The translations under genes were made by a program, and so were the position numbers. Shown piece by piece: positions 1-61,116 of a DNA stretch of 64,000 bases. The stretch comes from Omnitrophica bacterium GWA2_41_15 (GTDB lineage Bacteria; Omnitrophota; Gorgyraeia; Gygaellales; Profunditerraquicolaceae): NCBI GenBank assembly GCA_919901915.1, contig CAKKQB010000013.1:64192-128191 (forward strand). Reading direction: 5' to 3'. A model generated the notes under the pieces. The model had not been told where the DNA came from, made no database searches, and saw nothing but the letters and a program-made list of their open reading frames with translations. Every line of letters starts with the position of its first letter. The stretch's first letter is position 1.

Positions 1-1933
1 CTTTCGCTTTTTCTCTTATCTGCTTGTTCCAGAAAAATCTTTTTTTGCTTAAAAGAGTTAGGTAAGGAGAGGCCTCTTTGAAACAAACTTCTTCTATAAG
101 AGACATGTTCTCTAAAAGCGCGTTATTTTCCTTAACAGAAAAAAGCAATTCAACCGCCTCTTTTCTTGCCCCCTCACTTTTAGACAAAGCTTCTAACGCC
201 TGCCTCTTCAACAAAGGTGTACCTTTCTCTAAGGAAAGAATCGTAAATTTTTCATCAATCGCGCTTAATTTCTGCATCGCCTTCAATACTTCTATCTTTA
301 TAAACTCATTAGAAAACGAAAAAATATTCTTAAGCGCTTCTATGGCCAAGGCCAAATCAACTGTTTTCAAGCCATCTATAATCCCTAGCATAAATCCTAC
401 ATCAGTATTCTTTTTCTCTAAATTCCCATAAAAAATGTCCTTATGCCCGGGAAAAAACTTAAAAAATAATTTCAAGGCATAAGCGCTAACCTTACCTTCA
501 TTAAATATTTTATCCAGATAAAATTCAACCCCCATAGAGGATTTTTCCAGGGTATCCGCGAAATACTCCAAGTCAGAAGACAGTGGTTCGGCCTCCCCTT
601 GCCGAAGCCGCAAGTCAGAGGACAGTGGTTCGGCCGGCTCCCAAAACAGATTTTCTATTATTTTTGTAACGCGCGTATCCAAGACATCAAGAAAACGGCT
701 TAAATACGGTTTTTGTTTTCTTCCGTCTTTCAAAGCGCCACACAGATATTTAAGATATTGATAATCCTTTACCTTAACTATCTCGGGGAGCTCTTGAGAA
801 ATTTTTTCTATAATCTGCTCGGCCTTTTCAGAGTTTTCCTCTTGCGCGAACATACTCAACAAAATCAAACGGTAATTTTTTTGCAAAATTCCACGGTCAA
901 AAGAAAAAGCTCCCCCGGAAGAAATATCATTAAGCATAGCGCTAATCCTGCCGCGATAAACCTCTGAATCAAGAGAGGCATTGGGTTGGGCCAATAATTC
1001 CTGTATCTTTTTTATTGCTTTAGGATTCTGTTTTAAAGAATCTTTATTGAATGAATCTGTTAAAAAAAGTGAAGCGATGCCCTCCTGCATTTTTTCATCC
1101 GTGAAACGGGAAAATAACTCCAAACTTAAATTATCAAAATTTTCATCTTTTAATATTCCGCTCCAAAGCGCTCCCGCGAAGTCCTCTTCGCTCAAATGTC
1201 TAAAGAATACCTTAATTTTATCTATATTTTCTCCCCCTAAAACATCTTTATGCCTTAAAACTGACCTGAACATCGCGCTAATACAGGTTCTAAATCTTTC
1301 CTGATCATGTTTTTTAAGATAATCTAAAAAGGCCGTCACGCTCTGCCTTAGCTCTTCGTCATTAAGTAAATCATCCGCCTTAAACCTTAGAGCTATCTTT
1401 TCAAAATTATCCGCGAACACGCTTACCTTCTCTGAATCGCCCGAGCCTATTGCCTGAGCGACTAAATATTCCCATACATCCCTAATTTCTTCTCCCTCAT
1501 CTTTTAAAAATTGCGAATAATCCAACTCTTCAATAGATACATGCGCGATATTCTCCTTTTTTAGAATGCCCCCAAGGCCGCCTTGTTTAAAAACTTCTCG
1601 AACAGGTAAAGCTAAGCCGGCAAGAAAATATCTCAATTCCTCAACCGTAGCGCCTTGTTCTATCTGAATACTTCTCAATTTACGACGGTGAAAAATCATG
1701 GCTAATTCAACGCAAAACCCCATTTTCTGCCAATACCTTGAGTCCAAAAACAAAGAATTGGGAGTAACGCCTATTTTTATCGGGTTTAAAAAACCAAACA
1801 CCAAATCAGCGTTTTTTTTAAATTTTTCCACGGAATCTATAAAATAGGGGTGTGTTCCAGAATAAGAGGAGGCATTGTTTATAGCTATACGCAGGCTTTT
1901 AAGAAAATCATTTAAGACTTCTTCTTTATTCAT
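1..1933 (-). CDS. hypothetical protein, 3'-partial (>=644 aa, continues past left window edge)
   Basis: Read by hand on minus strand: ATG at 1931-1933 (MNKEEVLNDFLKSLRIAINNASSYSGTHPYF...) stays open to position 1; missing from ORF track only because no in-window stop; no domain recognised; carries an in-frame 42-bp tandem duplication (AEPLSSDLRLRQGE/AEPLSSDL). Confidence 0.6.
   Translation of the reverse strand, partial: MNKEEVLNDFLKSLRIAINNASSYSGTHPYFIDSVEKFKKNADLVFGFLNPIKIGVTPNSLFLDSRYWQKMGFCVELAMIFHRRKLRSIQIEQGATVEELRYFLAGLALPVREVFKQGGLGGILKKENIAHVSIEELDYSQFLKDEGEEIRDVWEYLVAQAIGSGDSEKVSVFADNFEKIALRFKADDLLNDEELRQSVTAFLDYLKKHDQERFRTCISAMFRSVLRHKDVLGGENIDKIKVFFRHLSEEDFAGALWSGILKDENFDNLSLELFSRFTDEKMQEGIASLFLTDSFNKDSLKQNPKAIKKIQELLAQPNASLDSEVYRGRISAMLNDISSGGAFSFDRGILQKNYRLILLSMFAQEENSEKAEQIIEKISQELPEIVKVKDYQYLKYLCGALKDGRKQKPYLSRFLDVLDTRVTKIIENLFWEPAEPLSSDLRLRQGEAEPLSSDLEYFADTLEKSSMGVEFYLDKIFNEGKVSAYALKLFFKFFPGHKDIFYGNLEKKNTDVGFMLGIIDGLKTVDLALAIEALKNIFSFSNEFIKIEVLKAMQKLSAIDEKFTILSLEKGTPLLKRQALEALSKSEGARKEAVELLFSVKENNALLENMSLIEEVCFKEASPYLTLLSKKRFFWNKQIREKAK
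571..646. repeat. in-frame 42-bp tandem duplication inside gene A derived from a ~45-bp mini palindromic element
   Basis: caagtcagaRgacagtggttcggcc x2; homologous to 9768-9813 in opposite orientation. Confidence 0.7.
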
Positions 1934-8012: not shown

Positions 8013-8218
8013 ATTCTCATGGGGCTGTTGCGAAATGCCATTTTTCGTCATTCCGGCGAAAACCGGAATCCAGAACTCTTTGATTTTAATAGACTTATGG
8101 ATACCGGCGACCGAGGGCGAAATGACCGAGGAAGTGTCGGAGCCTAACTGGGCTCGACCTTTCGCCAATATGACGATTTTAATGTATTTTGCAACAGCCC
8201 CCTCATGGATTTATCCGT
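8013..8218. mobile_element. MITE family A (~200 bp) with ~20-bp TIRs CATGGGGCTGTTGCGAAAT and internal hairpin GTCATTCCGGCGAAARCCGGAATCCAG
   Basis: near-identical copy at 51988-52171; TIRs read directly; spurious ORF 8035-8259. Confidence 0.8.
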
Positions 8219-8255
8219 GTTTATCCGTGTTCTTTTATCCGTGTCAATCCGTGTT
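8207..8255 (-). promoter_or_regulatory. cluster of 4 direct TTATCCGTGT (minus: ACACGGATAA) motifs with 10-14-bp phasing, just after pilMN stop / upstream of pilO
   Basis: ttatccgtgtttatccgtgttcttttatccgtgtcaatccgtgtt. Confidence 0.6.
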
Positions 8256-18922: not shown

Positions 18923-19029
18923 TAGCGTAGAGCGTAGAGCGGATAGTAAAATTAGCATTTAGCGTAGAGCGTAGAGCGTTTAATAAAAGTCTTTTGCCTT
19001 TTCTCTACGCTCTACGCTATACGCTATCC
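18923..19029. repeat. heptamer-array palindromic repeat, family F (AGCGTAG/AGCGTAT/AGCGGAT units), between carA and carB
   Basis: tandem 7-bp units in inverted arrays around AT-rich spacers. Confidence 0.85.
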
Positions 19030-20102: not shown

Positions 20103-20107
20103 ATTTT

Positions 20108-20136
20108 TAGCGTATAGCGGATAGCGTAGAGCGTAT
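20108..20136. repeat. family F heptamer array (single arm, 4 units) between purF and carA
   Basis: agcgtat agcggat agcgtag agcgtat. Confidence 0.7.
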
Positions 20137-20157
20137 AATAGTATAAATTATTATCTT

Positions 20158-33322: not shown

Positions 33323-34750
33323 TTAGATAATCGGCAAATTATTTTCTTGCGTCAAATACTTATCCATAAAATCAGCGCAGCGCCTTCCTTCTGAAATGGC
33401 CCAAACAATTAAAGACTGACCGCGACGCATATCTCCACAAGAAAAAACGCCTCGCCGAGAAGTCAGAAAACTTTCTTTTAACAAGTTGTTTCTCTCTGGG
33501 GGCAAAAAACCCAAGGCTAAAATTACCAAATCCCCATCGAGTTCAAATTCGCTTCCGGAAATTTCTTCCATTACAGAATGGCCTGATTCATTCTTCTTGA
33601 ATTCAACCCGGCAGCAAGAAAGCTTTTTTACGTGTCCATTCTCACCAATAAACTTTTTTGTGGAAACCGACCAATCGCGAATTCCAGCTTCTTGGTGGCT
33701 GGTAGTAGCCTTAAGAAGCAGCGGATACTTTGGCCAGGGATAATCACGCGTGCGGGATTCAGCCGGCCGCGGCATAATTTCAATCTGGGTGACGCTCTTC
33801 GCGCCTTGCCTATGCGCGACGCCGATACAATCCGCGCCGGTATCCCCGCCGCCAATCACCACAACTTTTTTATCTTTAGCATCAATAAGTTCATCCGAAG
33901 AAAATTTTACGCCTTGCGCTCTTTTATTTGATTGAATCAAATAATCCATCGCGAAATATATGCCTTTTAATTCCCTTCCTTCTATCTTTTCAGCCGCAGG
34001 CTGATCCGCCTTCGGCGGAAGATCCCGAGGAATACGAGAACCGCAAGCTAAACAAATCGCGTCAAACTCTTTTCTTGAATAAGGCGCCTTTAAATCCATA
34101 CCCACATTTATGCCCGGCATAAATTTTATTCCTTCCTTTTTCAAAATTTCTAAGCGCCGATCCAAAATCCTTTTTTCTAATTTAAAATCCGGGATCCCAT
34201 AGCGAAGAATACCGCCAATTTTATCATCCCGCTCAAACACCACTACATTATGCCCCGCCTTGTTTAATTGATCCGCGCAAGATAAGCCCGCAGGGCCAGA
34301 ACCAATAATTGCCACTTTTTTTCCGGTGCGCCTCTTAGGCGGATTAGGCTTAATAAATCCATGTTTAAACGCGTACTCAATTATTGCCAACTCATTCTCT
34401 CTTGTAGTTACCGCCTCATCATTAATCTCTAAAACACAGGCATATTCGCAAAGAGCCGGACAAATTCTGCCGGTAATCTCCGGAAAATTATTAGTAGCCG
34501 AAAGCAGCAAATAAGCCTTTTCCCACTTGCCGCGAAATAACAAATCATTCCATTCCGGGATATAATTACTAATGGGACAGCCCCAAAGACAAAACGGCGT
34601 CCCACAATCCATGCAGCGCGAAGCCTGCTCCATAGAATGTTCGACTGCAGGTAATATGCCCACTTCGCGATAATCTTGGACGCGTTCACAAACAGGCCTG
34701 CATTTAGATACTTGCCTTTTAACTTTTAAGAAACCTTTAATATCACCCAT
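33323..34750 (-). CDS. gltD: glutamate synthase small (beta) subunit
   Basis: 475 aa; two Cys clusters, GSGPAGL FAD and NADPH Rossmann motifs; overlaps gltB by 8 nt. Confidence 0.9.
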   Translation of the reverse strand: MGDIKGFLKVKRQVSKCRPVCERVQDYREVGILPAVEHSMEQASRCMDCGTPFCLWGCPISNYIPEWNDLLFRGKWEKAYLLLSATNNFPEITGRICPALCEYACVLEINDEAVTTRENELAIIEYAFKHGFIKPNPPKRRTGKKVAIIGSGPAGLSCADQLNKAGHNVVVFERDDKIGGILRYGIPDFKLEKRILDRRLEILKKEGIKFMPGINVGMDLKAPYSRKEFDAICLACGSRIPRDLPPKADQPAAEKIEGRELKGIYFAMDYLIQSNKRAQGVKFSSDELIDAKDKKVVVIGGGDTGADCIGVAHRQGAKSVTQIEIMPRPAESRTRDYPWPKYPLLLKATTSHQEAGIRDWSVSTKKFIGENGHVKKLSCCRVEFKKNESGHSVMEEISGSEFELDGDLVILALGFLPPERNNLLKESFLTSRRGVFSCGDMRRGQSLIVWAISEGRRCADFMDKYLTQENNLPII

Positions 34751-37700
34751 CTGATGCCTCCACCAACTCTATTTTCTCTTCTGTTTTTCTGCCTCCTAAT
34801 ACACGTTTATATTCAATGGGCATAACTTTTACAAATTTTTTTAATTCAGGAGTAAAATTATCTAAGATATTTTTCGCGCTGGAACTGCGCGTATAATGAT
34901 AGTGATTAGAAAGCAACTTCTCGATTGTTCGCGCGTCTTCTTCGGCCACGGCCTCAAGTATTACCATTTCCATATTGCACTTATTCTTAAAATCTCCGTC
35001 CTTATCCCAAACATAGGCGATACCGCCTGACATACCCGCGGCAAAATTTCTTCCGGTTCTGCCGATAACCACAACTCTGCCTCCGGTCATATATTCGCAA
35101 GCGTGATCTCCTACGCCCTCAACCACCGCGTAAAGGCCGGAATTCCTGATACAAAATCTCTCACCGGCAATCCCGCGGATATAGGCAGAGCCTAAAATTG
35201 CTCCGTAAAAAGTAGTATTGCCAATAATAATATTTTCTTCTACTTTGTAATTTGATTGCCTATCCGGATAGATGATAATTTTCCCTCCGGACATACCTTT
35301 ACCTACATAATCATTCGTCAGGCCTTCTAACTCAAGAGTAACTCCTTTGGCAAGCCAAGCGCCAAAACTTTGACCTGCCACACCCTTAAATTTAAAGTGT
35401 ATCGTATTCGCGGGTAAACCATCCTCCCCAAAAATACGACAAACTTCGCCGCTTAACATCGTGCCGACACTACGATTATGATTTCTAATGGATAGCTCTA
35501 TTTTAATTGGCTTCCTATTTTCCAAGGCGCCCCGAGCCAATTCGATAAGTTTTCTATCTAGAATATTGTCAATTCCGTAATCCTGTTTATAAGGAGCCAA
35601 ACCACTGCCCTCTGGCTTGCGGCTCGGGCTATGGGAAGCCCGACCATTGCCCTTTGGCTGATATAAAATCCGGGAAAAATCTATTTTCTTTGCTTTCCAG
35701 GGAAGAATCTTGCTATTTACTTCCAACAAATCAGCGCGGCCAATCAGATCATCTATTTTAACAATACCTAAACTACTCATAATCTGACGCAATTCCTGGG
35801 CAATGAAACGAAAATAATTTTCTACATATTCCGGCTTCCCGCTAAAGCGTTTCTCTAAAAGTTCATCCTGCGTAGCCACGCCAAGAGAACAGTTATTTAA
35901 GTGGCAATGTCTAAGCATAACACATCCCAAAACAACTAAGACTGAAGTACAAAATCCAAACTCCTCCGCGCCCAAAAGCGCGGCCACAGCCACATCCCTG
36001 CCGGTGCGCATTCCTCCGTCAACCTGAAGCCTCACCCTGCTTCTTAAATCATTTAAAACCAGGGTCTGATGTGTTTCGGCAATACCTAATTCCCAGGGAA
36101 GCCCGGCATGCTTAATGGAACTTAAGGGGGATGCCCCGGTGCCGCCATCTCCGCCGGAAATCAAAATCATATCCGCGTGCCCCTTAGCCACTCCCGTGGC
36201 AATAGTTCCTACTCCAATTTCAGAAACAAGTTTTACACTAACGCGCGCGCGCGGATTAACATTTTTTAAATCAAAAATTAGCTGGGCTAAATCTTCAATA
36301 GAATAAATATCATGATGCGGCGGCGGAGAAATCAAAGTTACGCCGGGAGTTGTATAACGAATCTTAGCGATAGCCGCGCTTACTTTGTGGCCGGGAAGCT
36401 GGCCGCCTTCCCCGGGCTTAGCGCCTTGCGCGATTTTAATCTGCAATTCATCAGCATTTACTAAGTAATTCGTAATAACGCCAAAACGCCCGGAAGCAAC
36501 CTGCTTTATAGCGCTGCGCTTAGAATCTCCGTTTGGGAACGCGACAAAACGCGCTGGATCCTCTCCTCCTTCGCCGGTATTAGACCTACCCCCCAATCTA
36601 TTCATCGCGATAGCTATTGTTTCATGGCAAGCCTTACTAATTGAGCCAAAACTCATCGCGCCGGTAACAAAACGCCGGACGATTTCGCTAACCGGCTCTA
36701 CTTCTTCAATGGGAATAGGCTTAACTTCTTTAAATTTAAAAAGGCTTCTTAAAGTAGCAGGATTACTTGATTGATCATTAATGAGTTTCGCAAACTCCTG
36801 GTATTTTTTAGAATCATTATTTCTTACCGCACCCTGCAAAGCGGCAATACTATCCGGATTCCAAAGATGAAATTCACCGTCTTTCTTCCACTGATACAGG
36901 CCGCCAGTTGCTAAAAATGGCCTTTGTAAACCATCGACCGCGAATGCCTCTTTGTGCCTTAGAAGCGCTTCCTTCTCAATAATTCCTAAATCAATACCTC
37001 CAATACGGGAAACTGTTCCGGTGAAATATTTATCAATTACCTCTGAACTTAGGCCCAATGCCTCGAATATCTGCGCGCCCCGATAACTTTGTAAAGTAGA
37101 AATTCCCATTCTTGAGAGTATCTTTAGAATGCCTTTATCCACTGCCTTAATATAATGCTTTATCGCGGACTCTAAATCTAAGTCAACTTCCTTATCTCTA
37201 ATTAAAAAGGCGGCCGCTTCATAGGCAAGATACGGATTAATACAATCCGCGCCATACCCAAACAAGAGCGCGAAATGATGCACCTCGCGCGGAGAAGCGC
37301 TTTGAACAATAATACTTACCTGGGTACGCAGCGCCTTTCTTACCAAATCCTGATGCACACAAGCCGTTGCCAATAACGCGCTAAGGCAGGCCTTATCTTT
37401 ATTTATACCCTGATCACTTAAAATAACAAAAGTAAAACCCTCTTTTATCGCGGCTTCTGTTTCTTTGCAAATCCTGTCTAATGCTTTTTTAAAATTGTTT
37501 TTTTCTGAAATATTAAACAGAAGAGAAATTGTTTTTGTTTTAAAACCGTTCTTTTTTATATCGTGAATCTTTTTCAGATCTTCATTTGTCAAAATAGGAT
37601 TTTTTACTAATAACTTATGGCAATGCCGCGGCTGCTCATCCAAAATATTTTTTTGCGGCCCTAAATACGTATCAAGGCTCATCACCAGCTCTTCCCTGAT

Positions 37701-39386
37701 TGGGTCAATTGCCGGATTAGTAACCTGCGCGAATAACTGTTTAAAATAACTATAAAGCAACTGCGGCTTATCAGATAAAACCGCATGCGGGGTATCATTA
37801 CCCATTGAGCCATTCGGTTCATGAGAATCTTCCACCATAGGTTTAATGATAAATTTAAAATCCTCGCGGGTGTAACCGAAAGCTTTGAATAGAGTTAACG
37901 GATCTACTTTATTAGCGGATAGCGGATAGCTTTTATTAGCGTAGAGCGTAGAGCGTAAAGCGTAGAGCGTTTTGCTTTTCCTATCCGCTATACGCTCTAC
38001 GCTATCCGCTGATAATTTATCCAACTCTAACATATTTTTTTTAAGCCATTCTCCATACGGCTTAGAGCTTGCCATTGTTTCTTTTATTTCCTTATCTTCA
38101 ATTATGCGGCCTTCTTCTGTATCAACAAAAAGCATCTTTCCCGGTTCAAGCCTTCCTGAGATAGAAATATCATCCGGCGCGATATCTAAAACCCCTGCCT
38201 CTGAAGCCATAACTACCAAATTCTTTTTGGTCACAATATAGCGGCTAGGCCTTAAACCATTTCTGTCTAAAACCGCGCCAATCCTTACGCCATCAGTAAA
38301 GGCAATGGCTGCCGGTCCATCCCAGGACTCAATAAGACAAGTGTGGTATTTATAAAAATCTCTTACATTTTGACTCAAAAGATTATTCTGCTCCCAAGCG
38401 CTGGGTATTAACATCATCATCGCGTGAGACAAAGATCTACCCGATAAAACTAAAAGTTCAAAAACATTATCAATAGCCGCGGAATCGCTTCCCCCGGGAA
38501 CAATCACCGGAAAAATTTCCTTTAAATCCTTACCAAATAATTTACTTTTTAGTAAACCTTGGCGGGCAGTCATCCAATTTATATTCCCTTTTAAGGTATT
38601 TATCTCTCCATTATGCGCCAAGAACCGAAAAGGCTGCGCCAGATCCCAAGTGGGAAAAGTATTGGTACTATAACGGGAATGCACTAAACAAATCGCGCTT
38701 TGAAGAGCGCTGTCTTTTAAATCCAAAAAGAATTTCTCCAACTGCTCAGGCATAAGCAGGCCTTTATAAGAAAGCGTGCGGCAAGAAAGATTAGTAATAT
38801 AAAAAAATGATTTTTGTTTTAAGAATAAAGAGCGGATTTCGTTTTCTATTTTCTTGCGGATAATATAAAGCCTGCGCTCAAAATCAAGGCCATCCTTACC
38901 TATACTTAGACCTTTACCTTTACCTATAAAAACCTGCTCAATCACCGGTTGAGTAAGCTTTGCGGTTTTGCCAATCGCGGAATTATCAACCGGGACAATC
39001 CGCCAACCAAGCAAGGCCTGGCCCTCTTCTTTAATAATTCTAGCAAAGATACCCTTACATAACGCGCGCTCTTTTTTGTTAGTGGGAAGAAATACCATGC
39101 CTATCCCATAATCGCCAGAGGACGGTAAAATAAAATTTTCCTTCGCGCAGGCTTTTGCCAAAAATTCATGTGGCGCCTGAATAAGTATGCCTGCGCCATC
39201 CCCGGTCTCTGGGTCGGCGCCAGTTGCCCCGCGATGAGAAAGACGGCCTAAAACCTCCATGCCCTGTTTAATAATTTCATAAGATTTTTTGCCTTTGACA
39301 TCGCAAACAAATCCTACGCCGCAGGAATCATGTTCAAAACGGGAATCATACAACCCGTATTTTTCTAATTTCTGACGATTATCCAT
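34743..39386 (-). CDS. gltB: glutamate synthase large (alpha) subunit; carries in-frame heptamer-repeat insertion
   Basis: 1547 aa; MDNRQ..CGVGFV Ntn glutaminase, FMN and GXGXG domains; residues ~459-492 encoded by palindromic repeat at 37912-38010. Confidence 0.95.
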   Translation of the reverse strand: MDNRQKLEKYGLYDSRFEHDSCGVGFVCDVKGKKSYEIIKQGMEVLGRLSHRGATGADPETGDGAGILIQAPHEFLAKACAKENFILPSSGDYGIGMVFLPTNKKERALCKGIFARIIKEEGQALLGWRIVPVDNSAIGKTAKLTQPVIEQVFIGKGKGLSIGKDGLDFERRLYIIRKKIENEIRSLFLKQKSFFYITNLSCRTLSYKGLLMPEQLEKFFLDLKDSALQSAICLVHSRYSTNTFPTWDLAQPFRFLAHNGEINTLKGNINWMTARQGLLKSKLFGKDLKEIFPVIVPGGSDSAAIDNVFELLVLSGRSLSHAMMMLIPSAWEQNNLLSQNVRDFYKYHTCLIESWDGPAAIAFTDGVRIGAVLDRNGLRPSRYIVTKKNLVVMASEAGVLDIAPDDISISGRLEPGKMLFVDTEEGRIIEDKEIKETMASSKPYGEWLKKNMLELDKLSADSVERIADRKSKTLYALRSTLYANKSYPLSANKVDPLTLFKAFGYTREDFKFIIKPMVEDSHEPNGSMGNDTPHAVLSDKPQLLYSYFKQLFAQVTNPAIDPIREELVMSLDTYLGPQKNILDEQPRHCHKLLVKNPILTNEDLKKIHDIKKNGFKTKTISLLFNISEKNNFKKALDRICKETEAAIKEGFTFVILSDQGINKDKACLSALLATACVHQDLVRKALRTQVSIIVQSASPREVHHFALLFGYGADCINPYLAYEAAAFLIRDKEVDLDLESAIKHYIKAVDKGILKILSRMGISTLQSYRGAQIFEALGLSSEVIDKYFTGTVSRIGGIDLGIIEKEALLRHKEAFAVDGLQRPFLATGGLYQWKKDGEFHLWNPDSIAALQGAVRNNDSKKYQEFAKLINDQSSNPATLRSLFKFKEVKPIPIEEVEPVSEIVRRFVTGAMSFGSISKACHETIAIAMNRLGGRSNTGEGGEDPARFVAFPNGDSKRSAIKQVASGRFGVITNYLVNADELQIKIAQGAKPGEGGQLPGHKVSAAIAKIRYTTPGVTLISPPPHHDIYSIEDLAQLIFDLKNVNPRARVSVKLVSEIGVGTIATGVAKGHADMILISGGDGGTGASPLSSIKHAGLPWELGIAETHQTLVLNDLRSRVRLQVDGGMRTGRDVAVAALLGAEEFGFCTSVLVVLGCVMLRHCHLNNCSLGVATQDELLEKRFSGKPEYVENYFRFIAQELRQIMSSLGIVKIDDLIGRADLLEVNSKILPWKAKKIDFSRILYQPKGNGRASHSPSRKPEGSGLAPYKQDYGIDNILDRKLIELARGALENRKPIKIELSIRNHNRSVGTMLSGEVCRIFGEDGLPANTIHFKFKGVAGQSFGAWLAKGVTLELEGLTNDYVGKGMSGGKIIIYPDRQSNYKVEENIIIGNTTFYGAILGSAYIRGIAGERFCIRNSGLYAVVEGVGDHACEYMTGGRVVVIGRTGRNFAAGMSGGIAYVWDKDGDFKNKCNMEMVILEAVAEEDARTIEKLLSNHYHYTRSSSAKNILDNFTPELKKFVKVMPIEYKRVLGGRKTEEKIELVEASDG
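37912..38010. repeat. family F heptamer-array palindrome inserted in frame inside gltB
   Basis: agcggat x2 ... agcgtag x4 ... ctatccgct atacgct ctacgct atccgct; translates LSADSVERIADRKSKTLYALRSTLYANKSYPLSANK. Confidence 0.85.
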
Positions 39387-39391
39387 ATTTT

Positions 39392-39558
39392 TAGCGTATA
39401 GCGTATAGCGTAGAGCGTAGAGCGTATAGCGTATAGCGTAGAACGTAGAGCGTAGAGCGGATAGCGGATAGTAAAAATCTATGTTTTAACTATATGTTAT
39501 CCGCTATTCCTACACGCTTTCTTTCCTATCCGCTAAACGCTATACGCTCTACGCTAAT
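39392..39558. repeat. largest family F locus (11-unit left arm + degenerate right arm) between glnN and gltB
   Basis: direct reading of tandem heptamers. Confidence 0.85.
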
Positions 39559-44661: not shown

Positions 44662-44741
44662 TAGCGGATAGCGTATAGCGTATATATAGGTTTTACTATC
44701 CGCTATACGCTCTACGCTATACGCTATACGCTTGATATTTT
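44662..44741. repeat. family F palindrome between nfnB and nfnA
   Basis: agcggat agcgtat agcgtat / atccgct atacgct ctacgct atacgct atacgct. Confidence 0.85.
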
Positions 44742-45569
44742 AAGATTACAGATATGCTTTTCTTTATCTAAATAAACACTGTTCCTCTTTGTCAATTCAT
44801 CCCAATTTACTTGAGTTCCGTCAAATTCCGGGCCATCAACGCAAGCAAATTTCGTCTTACCTGCCACAGTTACACGGCAACAGCCGCACATTCCAGTAGC
44901 ATCTACCATCAAAGGATTCAAAGAAACAATGGTTTTAACTTTAAAATCGCTAGCAACCTCGCAAACTCTTCTCATCATCGGTATCGGGCCGACTGCGTAA
45001 ATTAGCGAATAGCGGATAGCGGATAGTGAATAGCTTAATACCTCCTGCAAAATATCAGTAACAAAGCCTTTCCTGCCGCAAGAACCGTCATCAGTGGTTA
45101 TATAAAGCTCATCGCAAAACACCTTTAGCTCCTGCTCCAAAATCAATAAATCATTGTTTCTTGCGCCCAGTATAGTAGTAGTATGGTTTCCCGCTTCTTT
45201 CAAAGCCTTGGCAACCGGATAAATCTCCGCAATTCCTACGCCTCCGCCTACAAGAATTAAATTTCCAAAATTTTTAATCTCAGTAGCATGCCCCAGGGGC
45301 CCGGCCAAAGCGTATAATGAATCACCAACCTCCATCTTGCCCAGCAACTTAGTAGTTAAGCCAACCTCTTGAAAGATCAAGGTAATTGTGCCTATGTCAG
45401 AATTTTTATCTACTATAGTTAGAGGTATCCTTTCGCCTTCCTCGCATACCATAAGAACAACAAATTGGCCCGGTCTTACTTTCCTGGCAATAAGCGGGCT
45501 TAAGATTTCAAAGCGCTTAATTGTTACGTCTTGCGTTTGTGCTAAAATTTCTTTTTTGATTATCCGCAT
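44724..45569 (-). CDS. nfnA: NfnA/SudB (PyrK-like FAD/[2Fe-2S] subunit); in-frame heptamer-repeat insertion
   Basis: 281 aa; C-terminal CGCC...C 2Fe-2S; segment LSYSLSAIRYSLI encoded by repeat 45003-45036. Confidence 0.75.
   Translation of the reverse strand: MRIIKKEILAQTQDVTIKRFEILSPLIARKVRPGQFVVLMVCEEGERIPLTIVDKNSDIGTITLIFQEVGLTTKLLGKMEVGDSLYALAGPLGHATEIKNFGNLILVGGGVGIAEIYPVAKALKEAGNHTTTILGARNNDLLILEQELKVFCDELYITTDDGSCGRKGFVTDILQEVLSYSLSAIRYSLIYAVGPIPMMRRVCEVASDFKVKTIVSLNPLMVDATGMCGCCRVTVAGKTKFACVDGPEFDGTQVNWDELTKRNSVYLDKEKHICNLKISSV
45003..45036. repeat. family F single arm inserted in frame in nfnA
   Basis: agcgaat agcggat agcggat agtgaat. Confidence 0.75.
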
Positions 45570-46484: not shown

Positions 46485-47642
46485 TTAACGATTCCTCTTC
46501 AAAAAACTTTCTATTCTACTTAACGCCTCTTTCAAATTATCAAAACTTGCGGCATAGGATATGCGAATATTGTCCGCGAACTGAGCGCCAAAAGCTGTGC
46601 CCGGAATAACCGCGACCTTTTCCTCCTTTAAAAGCTGTTGGCAAAAATCCATCGCCTTAAGACCGCTGCTTTTTATGCTGGGAAAAGCATAGAAAGCACC
46701 CTGCGGCTTTGAACACTCAAGGCCGATGCGATTCAGCTCACTAACCACAAACTCTCTTCTTCGTTTATATTCACGCTTCATCTCTTCCACTGATTTTCTG
46801 CCTGAATGCATCGCTTCAGAAGCAGCTATTTGAGAAGTAATAGACACGCACATAATGGTATACTGATGAATCTTAGTCATAGCCGCGATAATCTCTTTTG
46901 GGCCGCAAGCAAAGCCCACACGCCAGCCAGTCATCGCGTAACTTTTGGAAAAACCATCAAGATAAACAGTCGAATTTTTTGCTTGAGGCAATGTCGCGAA
47001 AGGCGTATGAGTAAAATCATACGTCAAATCTCCATAAACCTCATCGCTGATACAAAGCAGATTATACTTCAACGCGATCTTCTTAATTTCCTCTAATTCT
47101 TTTTTAGTATAAGATACGCCCGTAGGATTAGTAGGGTAGTTCAATATAATTGCTTTAGCTTTCTTGTCTATGCTCTTCTCCAAGCTTTCCGGTGTAAGCT
47201 TAAAATTGTTTTTACTTGTATCGATATAAACAGGTATACCGCCGGCTAATTCACTAACCGGGCCGTAAGAAACATAACATGGCTCGGGTATAATTATTTT
47301 ATCACCCGGATTTATAATGGAACGCAAAACTAAATCCAAAGCCTCGCTTACCCCAACAGTAATCAAAATCTCTTCATCCGGACAATAATCCAAACCGTAT
47401 TTATTTTTTAGGTATTGTGAAATGGTCAGCCTTAATTTATACAAGCCCTTATTTGAGGTGTAAGAGGTAAAACCCTCTTCTAATGAAGCTATCCCTGCTT
47501 CGCGTATCTGCCAAGGCGTAACAAAATCCGGCTCACCCACGCCAAGGGAAATTACATCCTTCATGCCTAATACTAAATCAAAAAACGCGCGAATTCCGGA
47601 GGGATGCATTTGCTTAACTTTTTCGGAAACCAAATCTTTCAT
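46485..47642 (-). CDS. class I/II PLP-dependent aminotransferase (aspartate aminotransferase-like)
   Basis: 385 aa; NPTG, SKSYAMTGWRVGF PLP-lysine region. Confidence 0.85.
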   Translation of the reverse strand: MKDLVSEKVKQMHPSGIRAFFDLVLGMKDVISLGVGEPDFVTPWQIREAGIASLEEGFTSYTSNKGLYKLRLTISQYLKNKYGLDYCPDEEILITVGVSEALDLVLRSIINPGDKIIIPEPCYVSYGPVSELAGGIPVYIDTSKNNFKLTPESLEKSIDKKAKAIILNYPTNPTGVSYTKKELEEIKKIALKYNLLCISDEVYGDLTYDFTHTPFATLPQAKNSTVYLDGFSKSYAMTGWRVGFACGPKEIIAAMTKIHQYTIMCVSITSQIAASEAMHSGRKSVEEMKREYKRRREFVVSELNRIGLECSKPQGAFYAFPSIKSSGLKAMDFCQQLLKEEKVAVIPGTAFGAQFADNIRISYAASFDNLKEALSRIESFLKRNR

Positions 47643-47650
47643 CGTTTTCA

Positions 47651-47718
47651 GCGTTTAGCGGATAGCGTTTAGCGTATAGTTTTTTTTATCCGCTATACGC
47701 TCTACGCTATACGCTATT
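47651..47718. repeat. family F palindrome between lrp and aminotransferase
   Basis: arms around T8 loop. Confidence 0.85.
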
Positions 47719-48225: not shown

Positions 48226-48288
48226 GGAGAGAACAGATTACAGAGTACGGATTACTGAAAGATTTTTCTGTGCTCTGTTCTCTGTGCT
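48226..48288. repeat. family G heptamer palindrome (CAGAGAA/CAGAGCA units) forming nadE 3' end
   Basis: gagagaacagattacagag ... ctgtgctctgttctctgtgc. Confidence 0.8.
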
Positions 48289-49008
48289 TTCTTTAATATA
48301 GCATATTTTCGGCCCTTCCCTCTTATGCTCTGATTTCTTTACCATATTTTTTACTTTATTTACTTTCTCTTTTGATAAGACCTGTTTCTTCTTGTTTTCC
48401 AAACGCTCCAATATGTCATCTAACTCGTTATAGGTAAGCCCCATTTCTCCTTCATCGGTCTGGCCTGGCCAGAGTCCGGCAGTAGGCGGCTTAGTAACAA
48501 TGGATTCGGGAATCTTTAATTCTTTAGCCAATGCCCTTACCTGTTTTTTTAATAAACCGCCGATTGGCAAAATATCCGTTGCCCCGTCGCCATACTTGGT
48601 AAAATAACCGACTTCAATTTCAGATCTATTTCCTGTGCCGCAGACAAGATAATTAAGTTTATTGGCAAAATAATATAAAACTAACATCCTTAAGCGCGGT
48701 TTTAAATTTGCCAAAGCTAACGGCCCCGCTTTGGGTAAAATTTTCATGACATTGTCGTAAATATCAGCCAAATCAATTAATTTTATTTTTATCCCAAATT
48801 TCCTTGCCACTAACTTTGCGTCATCTAAATCCTGTTTTTGACTATGACAGCCAAGAAACAAAACCAAAAGTTTTTGTTTACCCAGCGCTTCCCTGGCTAA
48901 AACAGCTACCACCGCGGAATCTATCCCCCCGCTTAAACCCATAACAATACCCTTTGCCTTAGCCGCTTTGACCTGCTGCCTAATCCAAGAAATAATTTTC
49001 TTTTTCAT
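48238..49008 (-). CDS. nadE: NH3-dependent NAD+ synthetase; C-terminus supplied by heptamer repeat
   Basis: GLSGGIDSAVVAVLA PP-loop; last 16 aa STENRAQKNLSVIRTL encoded by repeat 48226-48288. Confidence 0.85.
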   Translation of the reverse strand: MKKKIISWIRQQVKAAKAKGIVMGLSGGIDSAVVAVLAREALGKQKLLVLFLGCHSQKQDLDDAKLVARKFGIKIKLIDLADIYDNVMKILPKAGPLALANLKPRLRMLVLYYFANKLNYLVCGTGNRSEIEVGYFTKYGDGATDILPIGGLLKKQVRALAKELKIPESIVTKPPTAGLWPGQTDEGEMGLTYNELDDILERLENKKKQVLSKEKVNKVKNMVKKSEHKREGPKICYIKESTENRAQKNLSVIRTL

Positions 49009-52353: not shown

Positions 52354-53637
52354 TTATTCTCTCGCGCTTTTCACGAGGAGAGGCATGATATCCCGGCCAA
52401 GAAGCTCGCCAAGCGAACCAAGCGATGCCGCTTTTTCAGAAAAACTTAAAGAACCGTCGGGCTTAATGTTTCCACCCGAGATAAGCAAAGGAACGGGGTC
52501 AGAGGAATGGGCTTTTATGACGCAAACAGTAGAATGATCCGCGGTTACAGCAATAATCGTATTGTTTATATCTATTTTTGGCAAAAAGCTTGAAAAAAAA
52601 TACTTATCTATCGCTTCAATAATGTCTTTCTTTTTATTAAAATCTCCGTCGTGCGCTGGCTCATCAGGGCCTTTGATATGCACATAAATACCATCATATT
52701 TCTTCATTGATTCCAAAGCCACCTTAGCCCAAACAGGATAATCCACATCTAAATGCCCGCTTGCATCAGGAACATCAATTATATCCATACCTGTTAATAA
52801 GGCAATCCCTTTTTCTACAGGCATCTGCACAAATGAACCAAACTTTACATCGTAAAAACTCTGAATAGGGGGAAATTTAGGGATGTGGTCCCCCGCGTCA
52901 CGCGATAAAATCACATTGCCGGGCATCTTATTTTCAGAAATCCTCTTTTTATTAACTAAGGAATCATTTAAAACTTTATGGGATTTCTGGGTAAATTCAT
53001 TTAAAAGCGCGGCCGCCTCCTTTGACTCGGGTGAATTCTCGTATCCGGGCATAGGAATTGACTCAACCACAAAATTCTCAAATTTCTCCTTGGCAACACC
53101 AAACACACCCTCCCTGTCATACGCGGGATCAGTATTAGTAATCCATCCGGATAATCTAGAGCGAACCCCTCTTATCACCAAAATTCCGCGATGCCCAATA
53201 GTACTTTTAAATTCAAAAGTCGCGCTTGAAAGCGTAACCTTTGAATTAATTTCTTTTGATAAAGCGACAGCCTCTTCAGTGGTAAGATTTCTTCCCACGC
53301 GCCTATCCTTAATTGTCAAGCCATCTGGCGCCACTGTGGCAAAATTAACCCGGAAAGCCACATCACCATCATTTACAACCAACCCTTCCGCGAAAGATTC
53401 TAAGGGCCCTCTGCCTGTATAATATTTGTGCGCGTCATAGCCTAAAAGACTGATTACCGCGATATCCGACTCCGGAGCAATTCCCTTAGCAACAGGATAA
53501 ACAATACCGGTTCTGCCTTTTTGAGCAAGACGATCAAGATTAGGCGTTAAAGCCGCCTCTAAAGGAGTTTTATTACCTAATTCCTTAACCGGTAAATCAC
53601 CTAAACCATCGAGAACTATATAAATAATTTTTTTCAT
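52354..53637 (-). CDS. apgM: archaeal-type cofactor-independent phosphoglycerate mutase
   Basis: 427 aa; MKKIIYIVLDGLGD metalloenzyme N-terminus. Confidence 0.85.
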   Translation of the reverse strand: MKKIIYIVLDGLGDLPVKELGNKTPLEAALTPNLDRLAQKGRTGIVYPVAKGIAPESDIAVISLLGYDAHKYYTGRGPLESFAEGLVVNDGDVAFRVNFATVAPDGLTIKDRRVGRNLTTEEAVALSKEINSKVTLSSATFEFKSTIGHRGILVIRGVRSRLSGWITNTDPAYDREGVFGVAKEKFENFVVESIPMPGYENSPESKEAAALLNEFTQKSHKVLNDSLVNKKRISENKMPGNVILSRDAGDHIPKFPPIQSFYDVKFGSFVQMPVEKGIALLTGMDIIDVPDASGHLDVDYPVWAKVALESMKKYDGIYVHIKGPDEPAHDGDFNKKKDIIEAIDKYFFSSFLPKIDINNTIIAVTADHSTVCVIKAHSSDPVPLLISGGNIKPDGSLSFSEKAASLGSLGELLGRDIMPLLVKSARE

Positions 53638-53644
53638 ATTTTAT

Positions 53645-53700
53645 TAGCGCGGATAGCGTTTAATTTTTTCTATACGCTATACGCTCTACGCTATACGCTA
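53645..53700. repeat. family F palindrome between nrdJ and apgM
   Basis: agcgcggat agcgttt ... atacgct atacgct ctacgct atacgct. Confidence 0.85.
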
Positions 53701-59775: not shown

Positions 59776-61116
59776 TTAATGAAATTTTTTCTTGGCTTTT
59801 TTTGAGATACACAAGGCGGGATTTTTCCAAAACTCTTTGAGCGTATAATAAGCTTTGCGGGGAGAGCGTTTATTCAACCTTTGTCCTGCCGGGTCTTTAC
59901 TGCCTAATAAGGCATCCTCAGGCTCTTGCGACAATGCCACAATACCAAACCACTCTTCATTCATATTTTTATTGCCTTCTACCTTTATATCAAAATAATA
60001 GTTTCCGTTAGACCAATTCGAACCAGTATCATGCTCGAGCCACGTATCAGAGGCATGCTCATCATACTTCCACCATTCATCTGACCACTCAAAAATAACG
60101 CCGCCTAAACAATTGCCCGCGCCTTTCTTATTACCCGCCAGATTCCCATAAATCTGACACCATTGAGATTCCAGGAAAAATGCCTGCATATCCTGATCTT
60201 CCTTTTTTAAATAGGCATCATAACAATCAGCACCAATTTCTACCAAAAGAATTGGCTTGTCAAAAGTTAATTTTAAAGATTTAAAAAGGTTTCCAAAGGT
60301 CTTACCTCTATAGATAATGCAAGCAATCAAATCTACGTCAGGACAATATTCCTTCGCGTATTCCAACCCTGTCAACTCGCCATTCCCCAATGCCACAGGA
60401 TGTTGAGGGTCGAGTTCATGGACAGCTTTCGTCAAATCATTTACATAAGAATAATAAATCCTGGAACGTATGGCTCCTTGTTTCTGGGGATCTGGTTCTT
60501 TTTCTGCTTCTTCGCAGGCCCAAGGATTAACACGGCCTAAACAAGAATAGTTATTTTCATTGCCCATAATCCACATAAGCAATCCGGGCTCGTCCTTATA
60601 TAAGCTGACCATATCCAGGACATCTTTCTTTATTCTTTCCTGAAAACCCTTATCTCCATAGAATGGGCCGGGATACTCCCAAAAAGATAACCAATGGCCT
60701 AAAATTGTGCGTATTCCGTAAAGCTGATAAAGCTCGCTAATTACTTTTTTTACCGCTTCTGGATTATCTCCCGGCTGATAAATTCTTATGGTATTAACCC
60801 CCATCTCATGCATCAGTTTTCCGTCTACAATCCAAGGTTTATTGGGGTCAGACCACCAGTCATATTCGTGATTCTTACCAATAGGAACAGGATTATAACA
60901 AACCCCTTTTACGATGTAAGGTTTTTTATCTACTATCAACTGGTAGTAATTATTTTTAAGTTTTTTAATATAAACTCCGGGCTTTGGCTTTGAGGCCATA
61001 CCCATTAAAAACAGAACACAGAGCACAGAAAACAGAGAACAGAATATTTTTCTCTGTGCTCTGCGCTCTGTTCTCTGTGCTCTATTTTCCGTTCTCTTAT
61101 TCATACTTAATTTCAT
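59776..61116 (-). CDS. putative clan GH-A (TIM-barrel) glycoside hydrolase; N-terminus encoded by heptamer repeat
   Basis: 446 aa; MGVNTIRIY, IMGNENNY (acid/base), GGVIFEWSDEWWK (nucleophile region); paralog of 62381-63961; start uncertain (alternative Met at MGMASKP). Confidence 0.65.
   Translation of the reverse strand: MKLSMNKRTENRAQRTERRAQRKIFCSLFSVLCVLFLMGMASKPKPGVYIKKLKNNYYQLIVDKKPYIVKGVCYNPVPIGKNHEYDWWSDPNKPWIVDGKLMHEMGVNTIRIYQPGDNPEAVKKVISELYQLYGIRTILGHWLSFWEYPGPFYGDKGFQERIKKDVLDMVSLYKDEPGLLMWIMGNENNYSCLGRVNPWACEEAEKEPDPQKQGAIRSRIYYSYVNDLTKAVHELDPQHPVALGNGELTGLEYAKEYCPDVDLIACIIYRGKTFGNLFKSLKLTFDKPILLVEIGADCYDAYLKKEDQDMQAFFLESQWCQIYGNLAGNKKGAGNCLGGVIFEWSDEWWKYDEHASDTWLEHDTGSNWSNGNYYFDIKVEGNKNMNEEWFGIVALSQEPEDALLGSKDPAGQRLNKRSPRKAYYTLKEFWKNPALCISKKAKKKFH
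61001..61074. repeat. family G heptamer palindrome forming 5' end of GH gene
   Basis: aacagaacacagagcacagaaaacagagaacagaa / tctgtgctctgcgctctgttctctgtgctct. Confidence 0.8.

Follow-up and report, generated by a model that had tools for sequence, protein, structure and literature searches.

The 64,000-nt stretch analyzed here (the window) comes from Omnitrophica bacterium GWA2_41_15 (contig CAKKQB010000013.1, positions 64,192 to 128,191) and carries gltB, the gene for the large subunit of glutamate synthase (1547 aa, intact; 34743..39386, minus strand). We found that the spacer between two domains of this protein contains an in-frame copy of a hairpin element built from tandem 7-nt units, which belongs to a dispersed family (family F) of Omnitrophota. 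The explanation that we consider probable as a whole is that a copy of the dispersed hairpin was fixed in frame in gltB, with one origin followed by recombination, local growth, and a filter on the reading frame.

The element lies at 37909..38015 on the minus strand (residues about 458-494), as delimited by inverted repeats, tandem arrays, a codon map, and the predicted fold. Tandem Repeats Finder (TRF) detected two plus-strand arrays, (TAGCGGA) x2.6 at 37913-37930 and (AGCGTAG) x4.7 at 37938-37970, and an inverted array, (CTATACG) x4.3, at 37981-38010. The palindrome is imperfect, with arms at 37909-37935/37989-38015 and 37933-37967/37981-38015 that are 81-88% complementary. In the window, 33 matches to the two-unit motif AGCGTAGAGCGTAG (up to 2 mismatches) were counted, versus 0.12 expected occurrences. 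The coding-strand RNA of the insert is predicted to fold at -50.5 kcal/mol, compared with -30.1 +/- 3.7 kcal/mol for shuffled sequences (z = -5.6; 0 of 200 shuffles as stable). The 5' arm (37981..38010, minus strand; coding strand AGCGGATAGCGTAGAGCGTATAGCGGATAG) comprises four heptamer units and encodes ADSVERIADR. The first part of the 3' arm (37938..37970, minus strand; coding strand ACGCTCTACGCTTTACGCTCTACGCTCTACGCT, encoding TLYALRSTLYA) pairs with the 5' arm in the minimum-free-energy fold, and the second part (37909..37937, minus strand) is a 24-nt duplicated module (...CGCTAATAAA twice) that encodes (N)KSYPLSANK. The duplication was detected both as a direct repeat (D2, 37896-37919/37920-43, 75%) and by TRF (period 24, 2.1 copies, 37899-37948).

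Codon-by-codon mapping of the insert gave the peptide L458-SADSVERIADRKSKTLYALRSTLYANKSYPLSANK-V494, with the insert occupying residues 459-493 of the unbroken open reading frame (ORF). An earlier note on this DNA had described a palindrome that lies in the gltB frame without breaking it and encodes a specific peptide at about residues 459-492. The intact 1547-aa ORF, the inverted repeats, and the TRF arrays agree with this description, the extent now being 37909-38015, and the codon map returns exactly the claimed peptide. Only one of the six frames of the window copy is free of stop codons, and this is the frame that is actually used. Two other readings of the hairpin were rejected: an intrinsic terminator, as a T-run is absent after the hairpin on both strands, and an internal gltB start site, as a start codon is absent downstream of the insert. 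Rfam gave no family match, and the only matches were sub-threshold ones to hairpin-like microRNAs.

Comparison with orthologs shows that the segment is an insertion. The segment is missing from 114 of the 120 full-length Omnitrophota GltB orthologs and from all 15 close fragment orthologs, and the Bacillus and Azospirillum GltB structures (7mfm and 6s6s) have gaps opposite it. The linkers of Bacillus, Azospirillum, and the 114 Omnitrophota orthologs are short and lysine-rich. In the 120 full-length Omnitrophota proteins, LELD and FGY mostly delimit a stretch of 26-33 aa (mode 28), versus 53 aa in the query. The earlier note had anticipated an insertion of about 33 aa relative to orthologs; an insertion was indeed found, but its size was overestimated, as the net gain over the modal linker of 28 aa amounts to about 25 aa and part of the old linker was replaced. 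The insert falls within the Pfam gap at residues 448-500, between GATase_2 (22-447) and Glu_syn_central (501-780), which places it, as proposed before, in the linker between the glutaminase and central domains. The Glu_synthase (843-1208) and GXGXG (1299-1485) domains follow, and the gltB product matches the PDB entries 7mfm, 6s6s, and 1ea0, all with E=0. The full-length relatives were retrieved with the whole protein as the query, whereas a 271-aa fragment query returned only fragmentary proteins. The nearest of them share 69-73% identity with the query, and the named ones are almost all labeled Candidatus Omnitrophota/Omnitrophica.

The linker is a hypervariable indel hot spot among GltB orthologs. 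In an AlphaFold2 model of residues 330-600 (271-aa fragment, 101-sequence alignment), the predicted local distance difference test (pLDDT) score is 43-60 over the insert, compared with 84-93 just upstream. These low predicted values fit a flexible loop. Other Omnitrophota GltBs have extra peptides in the same linker that are unrelated to the insert: the P0122 linker region is 69 aa long, P0180 has a tandem KPEGDGLASNSQSH, and further linker peptides were seen in P0218, P0227, and P0181/P0193/P0201. Indel hot spots also occur near query residues 155-166, 192, 624, 885, and 1244.

Five other gltB orthologs carry the insert (P0140, P0159, P0160, P0192, and P0198, with DNA loci L002, L006, L003, L004, and L008, respectively), and the proteins are about 72% identical. 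Their linker regions are 41-43 aa long, compared with 53 aa in the query, and read PAxSVERRADRKxYTLNAKRYPL. In all five, the element begins at the same codon and in the same frame (CCA|GCG yAT AGC GTA GAG CGT AkA GCG GAT AG...). Only 1-2 codons of the old linker remain before the conserved Asp in these short carriers, so that about 8 codons were replaced. The unit order and frame of the 5' arm recur in the gltB of L002, L003, L006, and L008 and in the in-frame copies of other proteins. The window copy has the same 5' arm as the other carriers, and on the 3' side about 36 nt are added to the common 66-nt core; most of this lineage-specific expansion is the 24-nt duplicated module. The earlier note had treated the copy as one palindrome. 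Its membership in family F holds, but the copy is composed of the core and the expansion.

Homologous peptides at the same site, which the earlier note had associated with an ancestral segment, thus exist in five other Omnitrophota alleles, and the insert is neither recent nor private. However, because all carriers come from one phylum and represent a small minority, sequence comparison argues that the segment is derived and not ancestral. The insert is most unlikely to be an assembly artefact, because the identical 1547-aa protein is recorded on three contigs, including ENA ERZ1292638 NODE_67 (95 kb), and homologous inserts are present in five independent assemblies (JGI, Logan, NCBI) made with different pipelines. 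Between carriers, third-codon-position identity inside the insert is 0.77-0.95, compared with 0.41-0.51 in 120 flanking codons (except for the recombinant L002/L006 pair) and 0.39-0.55 gene-wide.

The family to which the insert belongs is a stereotyped hairpin of ~70 nt, with the consensus TAGCGTATAGCGTAGAGCGTATAGCGGATAG, an A-rich loop (AAAAA), and then CTATACGCTAAACGCTATCCGCTAAACGCTAA. Its units are GCGTAGA, GCGTATA, GCGGATA, and their complements. The arms vary in length via gain and loss of units, and the internally periodic element measures 66-107 nt. Its ends, TAGCG...CGCTA, are terminal inverted repeats, although trivially so, as for any palindrome. A metagenome scan with the 22-mer AGCGTAGAGCGTAKAGCGGATA returned at least 120 loci. 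Among the matches listed, 75 copies include the 3' arm and sufficient sequence beyond it, and in 55 of them an ORF of at least 80 codons starts on the sense strand within 60 nt downstream, mostly within 0-20 nt. In a symmetric control with 64 complete copies from the same matches, a sense start was found for 49 and an antisense start on the other side for 10. The family is polar relative to transcription, with a sense orientation bias toward the downstream gene. About 115 copies among these matches have no consistent target-site duplication, beyond a possible TA at each end.

We scanned GTDB with (AGCGTAG)2.6 and, among the matches listed, found plain arrays in many phyla and stereotyped hairpins in Omnitrophota metagenome-assembled genomes (MAGs) and a few Atribacteria-like contigs. 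The hosts of plain (AGCGTAG)n arrays among these matches (L009-L126) include Bacteroidales, Planctomycetota, Anaerolineae, Gemmatimonadota, and Verrucomicrobiota, as well as Atribacterota, Patescibacteria, Haliea, Hylemonella, and Shewanella, and the arrays are often strung together with other heptamer arrays. Full-text literature searches for the repeat sequence, Omnitrophota repeats, and heptamer hairpins did not return a description of the family.

Six intergenic family-F copies are present in the window, all within short spacers of co-directional genes. One hairpin lies in the carA/carB spacer (18924..19025; TRF and motif matches, with flanking ORFs identified by Pfam), and a half-array lies directly upstream of the carA start (20108..20137; ...CGCTAAAAAT-ATG), as seen by TRF, in the sequence, and from its upstream context. 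A large hairpin occupies the gltB 5' leader (39392..39556, minus strand), where TRF detected (TAGCGTA) x11.4 and an inverted array at 39526-39556. The others, detected by TRF and in the sequence, lie between NfnA/PyrK-like and GltD/NfnB-like ORFs identified by Pfam (44662..44732), 7 nt upstream of the start of ORF 46485..47642 (47650..47717), and about 7 nt upstream of the start of ORF 52354..53637 (53645..53700). The 3' arm of the gltB leader ends with ...CGCTAAAAAT directly before the ATG at 39386, and a Shine-Dalgarno sequence is absent. The gltB (39387-39392) and carA (20103-20108) starts both follow ...CGCTAAAAAT in this way without a Shine-Dalgarno sequence, and close variants precede ORFs 46485..47642 (47643-47650) and 52354..53637 (53638-53645). 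GGAG-type sites are present at many other window genes. ORF 12476..13969 also starts directly after a repeat arm (13970-13985), likewise ending in ...CGCTAAAAAT or a close variant, without a Shine-Dalgarno sequence. This setting also prevails among the metagenome copies (49 of 64).

In-frame copies were also found in other proteins, where the 5' arm is read as (A)YSVERIADRK and the 3' arm as LNAKRYPL(NA), in the same frame throughout. KdsB (contig L177) has two in-frame inserts of 22-23 aa each (residues 93-114 and 172-194). Both are absent from the structure 1vh3, whose positions 88/91 and 146/149 are contiguous across them. The second KdsB insert (L177 ~1560-1640) is chimeric and combines a family-F 5' arm with four units of the unrelated heptamer CTCAAAA, without a complementary arm. 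Single in-frame copies occur in a MiaB-like protein (L173), a 761-aa protein (L103), PheT (P0258), and a Memo-AMMECR1 fusion (P0257). A PyrK-like protein from an Omnitrophota MAG (L112) has one full and one half copy, and further proteins (L162, L208, and P0242) have 2-4 copies. In the window itself, a half-array in the NfnA/PyrK-like ORF 44724..45569 (45003..45034, minus strand) encodes SLSAIRYSL in frame, with a net gain of about 3 aa compared with Pyrococcus NfnI (5jca_S). PheT and the Memo-AMMECR1 fusion came from a HMMER search with little power (21 matches), in which a 25-position profile of the insert was compared with 1.84 billion representative proteins, and a profile search with linker alignment A2 gave only 5 candidates. 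The earlier note had likened the gltB element to Rickettsia palindromic elements (RPEs) because of its in-frame insertion, and the copies in KdsB, MiaB-like, PheT, PyrK-like, and Memo-AMMECR1 fusion proteins strengthen this parallel.

In the strict family consensus, each of the six frames is interrupted by stop codons; only variants with a suitable unit order and loop length can survive inside genes. From these sequences, a selective filter on intragenic copies is plausible. The suggestion of selection after insertion, made before from the length and open frame of the gltB copy, fits these results, as none of the six frames is open in the consensus and a single one is open in the window copy. 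We dropped a rule that the reverse orientation is never readable, as the L006 copy has an open reverse frame.

Phylogenetic analyses (bootstrapped neighbor-joining trees) revealed that the gltB carriers are not each other's nearest relatives but fall within groups of non-carriers, with bootstrap values of 92-100%. P0192 and the non-carrier P0158 are sisters (92%) in a clade otherwise without the insert, and P0159 is sister to the non-carrier P0190 (100%). The non-carrier linkers of these clades are similar to one another and to those of more distant orthologs (for example, P0148), which makes absence of the insert the ancestral state. Across alignment columns 360-620, L006 has an identity of 0.85-0.91 with the carrier L002, with which it shares a tract of at least 800 nt, and from column 500 to the end it has an identity of 0.85-0.93 with the non-carrier L007. 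For the 15 codons flanking the insert on either side, the third-position identity of 15 carrier-carrier pairs lies on average 0.15 above the gene-wide value, versus -0.03 for 12 carrier/non-carrier pairs. L004 and L005, the closest pair overall, have a third-position identity of only 0.33 in these flanks. The same boundary and linker replacement, the mosaic genes, and the shared flanks favor a single origin with recombinational transfer. On these sequence patterns, recombination likely spread the insert among gltB alleles. The Omnitrophota gltB mosaics as such (L002, L006, and L007) could reflect either recombination between diverged lineages or chimeric assembly.

We propose that the gltB segment is a copy of a tandem-heptamer hairpin that is dispersed and abundant in Omnitrophota, mostly in sense orientation and in intercistronic or 5'-leader positions a few bases before start codons. 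In this reading, one copy became fixed in frame within the hypervariable spacer that separates the amidotransferase domain from the central domain, where it took the place of most of the old linker of ~10 aa. The enzyme would tolerate its translation product as a surface loop of low complexity that is probably disordered. Given the mosaic structure, a single insertion was then most likely transferred among diverged gltB backgrounds of Omnitrophota by homologous recombination or short-tract gene conversion. In the window lineage, it later grew by about 36 nt through unit gain and the 24-nt duplication in the 3' arm. Intragenic copies would be the survivors of a selective filter in which the right orientation, phase, unit order, and loop length avoid stop codons. 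A trans-acting transposase, or template switching with slippage, are candidate modes of family proliferation.

Several observations weigh against this proposal. The conservation of the insert exceeds that of its near flanks, and a neutral passenger as old as the flanks should have decayed, so that its simple descent, whether vertical or by recombination, leaves the excess unaccounted for. Candidate causes of the excess are purifying selection on DNA or RNA, homogenisation against other copies, repeated re-insertion, and younger transfer tracts. The mosaic signals come from metagenome contigs, in which chimeric assembly of co-occurring relatives is possible. No transposase gene, including that of a REP-associated tyrosine transposase (RAYT), was found in the ten window ORFs scanned, and no insertion sequence (IS) was sought beyond the 64-kb window. 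Neither a clear target-site duplication nor a high-identity empty/filled pair was seen, and we infer the mobility of the family solely from its dispersal. The structure model is limited to a fragment, with a mean pLDDT of 69.5. Compensatory change was found in 0 of the 20 predicted pairs of the five short gltB copies, and structure-level selection is therefore not demonstrable from the alignment.

The carriers are scattered among non-carriers in the gene tree, and their inserts differ far less from each other and from the family consensus than do the synonymous sites around them. The family also lands in many genes, and other repeat families entered the same GltB loops in other lineages. All of this is in line with recurrent independent insertion at the same gltB hot spot in each carrier lineage, which would leave young copies near the family consensus. 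However, the five short carriers have an identical 5' boundary codon, frame, and replacement of about 8 codons, which is unlikely to result from independent events. Near-flank synonymous identity is raised specifically among carriers, and L006 and L002 have in common a tract of at least 800 nt. We thus regard recurrent insertion as unlikely. It is also possible to read the intragenic hairpin as an element kept by nucleotide-level selection, as a translational pause, a site for an RNase or RNA-binding protein, or a target of a leader factor. The hairpin is strong, the polarity and start-codon position of the family suggest an RNA-level role of typical copies, and the third-position identity of 0.77-0.95 in the insert contrasts with about 0.45 gene-wide, where synonymous divergence is saturated. 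Against this, 114 of the 120 orthologs function without the insert, covariation is nil, and the window copy has freely changed in length and arm composition. The unrelated repeats in the same loop of other lineages fit a permissive site better than a functional one, and maintenance of the gltB hairpin for its own function appears quite unlikely to us. We are just as doubtful of the broader idea that the heptamer hairpin is a functional, transcription-polar RNA module of Omnitrophota that replaces the Shine-Dalgarno leader in many genes (...CGCUAAAAAU-AUG), with the gltB copy being functional, kept at the nucleotide level, and gene-converted between lineages. If it were true, the intragenic gltB hairpin might pause translation between domains or offer a processing or binding site tied to nitrogen-metabolism genes.

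An origin within the linker itself, by replication slippage and hairpin-templated copying with no arriving element, is very improbable. Heptamer simple repeats are common in prokaryotes and are thought to expand by slippage (PMC4679880, PMC4692102), and the window copy has undergone local unit gain and a 24-nt duplication. However, in its arm order, loop, and 3' arm, the gltB insert agrees almost base for base with the stereotyped element of the dispersed family, and the non-carrier linkers contain no heptamer seed. The presence of homologous peptides at the same site in six alleles would suit an ancestral segment lost in most lineages, but the short lysine-rich linkers of related lineages resemble one another and the carriers are nested inside non-carrier clades. 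Likewise, the same protein on three contigs and the inserts in five other assemblies speak against an artefact. Ancestral loss and misassembly are hardly credible and already largely refuted.

The gltB gene belongs to a nitrogen-assimilation cluster together with amtB, the gene for a GSIII-type glutamine synthetase, and gltD; pyrG is the next gene downstream. The glutamine synthetase and amtB precede gltB, and a gltD-like gene (33323..34750) overlaps and follows it. A second repeat-derived in-frame segment of gltB, from a different family (CCAGARGGCAGTGGTTYGGC...), lies at 35592..35657 on the minus strand (residues about 1244-1265, PKGNGRASHSPSRKPEGSGLAP). This segment is situated between the Glu_synthase and GXGXG domains, in a region of 50 aa in 109 of the 120 orthologs versus 60 aa in the query. 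The second family (about CCAGARGGCAGTGGTTYGGCC...GGCCGAAGCCGCAAG) has the in-frame translation ...PEGSG(L/S)A..., and its other copies are a tandem pair at 573-629 (plus strand) and a copy at 9795-9809 (minus strand), near the N-terminus of the PilM-like ORF 8256..9980. Related peptides, EGHGLASYSQSHKS and KPEGDGLASNSQSH, were observed at different loops of other Omnitrophota GltBs. The second repeat and these related peptides at other loops indicate that several repeat families colonise permissive GltB loops in Omnitrophota.

Further repeats in the window are of other kinds. A different heptamer palindrome family (AACAGAG/CACAGAG with CTCTGTG) occurs at 61008-61097 and 48228-48288. The latter copy extends over the final ~20 codons and the stop codon of the ORF for NAD synthase (48238..49008), past the end of the Pfam domain (233/256), and the C-terminal tail of NAD synthase may be repeat-derived. 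Arrays of the 10-nt unit TTTATCCGTG, a third short-tandem-repeat family, are intergenic (8210-8255, 13986-14046, 14692-14734, and 15178-15198). A perfect 464-bp tandem duplication (14714-15598; 1.9 copies, 100% identity) begins in one of these arrays and is either real or an assembly artefact.

The stereotyped hairpin family is very abundant in groundwater and sediment metagenomes. Its sense-oriented position at start codons without a Shine-Dalgarno sequence makes it a candidate, open to testing, for a module of translation or mRNA stability. The gltB copy represents a natural experiment, with conservation at synonymous sites far above the gene background and apparent spread by recombination. 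For annotation, peptides of the AYSVERIADRK...LNAKRYPL type in Omnitrophota proteins should be recognized as repeat-derived.

In its construction, the element resembles the short tandemly repeated repetitive (STRR) sequences of cyanobacteria and the TAACTGA repeats of Beggiatoaceae, as it has a tandem 7-nt unit (TRF period 7), is mostly intergenic, often lies between a promoter or upstream gene and a start codon, and is patchy across phyla. It differs from them in its host, Omnitrophota, and in its unit sequence, as the STRR units are different from GCGTAGA/GCGTATA/GCGGATA. It also forms a stereotyped hairpin (a 5' purine-rich arm, an A-rich loop, and a complementary 3' arm) rather than plain direct arrays, and many proteins contain in-frame copies of it. 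In TAACTGA repeats, the forward orientation does not permit read-through (PMC4679880). As a class, heptamer simple repeats are known and abundant in prokaryotes, mostly intergenic, often between a promoter or upstream gene and the start codon, and patchy across phyla (PMC4679880, PMC4692102).

The family also shares features with MITEs (miniature inverted-repeat transposable elements), repetitive extragenic palindromes (REPs), and REP doublets forming hairpins (REPINs), being small, non-coding, palindromic, multi-copy, and mostly extragenic. REPs are strictly extragenic and consist of an imperfect 20-40-nt palindrome, one end of which is a conserved GTAG or CGTC. The element described here falls outside this definition of REPs and REPINs, as it is 66-107 nt long and internally periodic, and the gltB and several other copies are intragenic. 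It further differs from MITEs and REPs in its strong orientation bias toward the downstream gene, and no partner IS or RAYT was identified in the ten window ORFs scanned. GTAG tetranucleotides occur within the family units, as they do at the ends of GTAG-type REPs (PMC3733652), and MITEs occasionally insert in frame (PMC10969869).

The closest parallel in behavior is with the RPEs of Rickettsia, the best-known case of palindromic repeats that colonise essential genes in frame. RPEs are short dispersed palindromic repeats that also occur in frame inside housekeeping genes, are translated at permissive positions, and can occupy orthologous sites common to related lineages. The gltB element is likewise palindromic and dispersed, lies in frame in housekeeping genes, would be translated, and is shared at an orthologous site. 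It differs in its host, which is Omnitrophota and not Rickettsia, in its tandem 7-nt units and variable arms, and in the typically polar position of the family, abutting start codons. The likeness is one of behavior, and given the Omnitrophota host and the heptamer periodicity, sequence membership in the Rickettsia families RPE-1 to RPE-10 is not expected. The gltB element thus shows RPE-like behavior within an apparently undescribed heptamer-hairpin family, extending this in-frame behavior to a free-living, uncultivated phylum. As it is built like a heptamer microsatellite, it joins two repeat classes that are usually handled apart.

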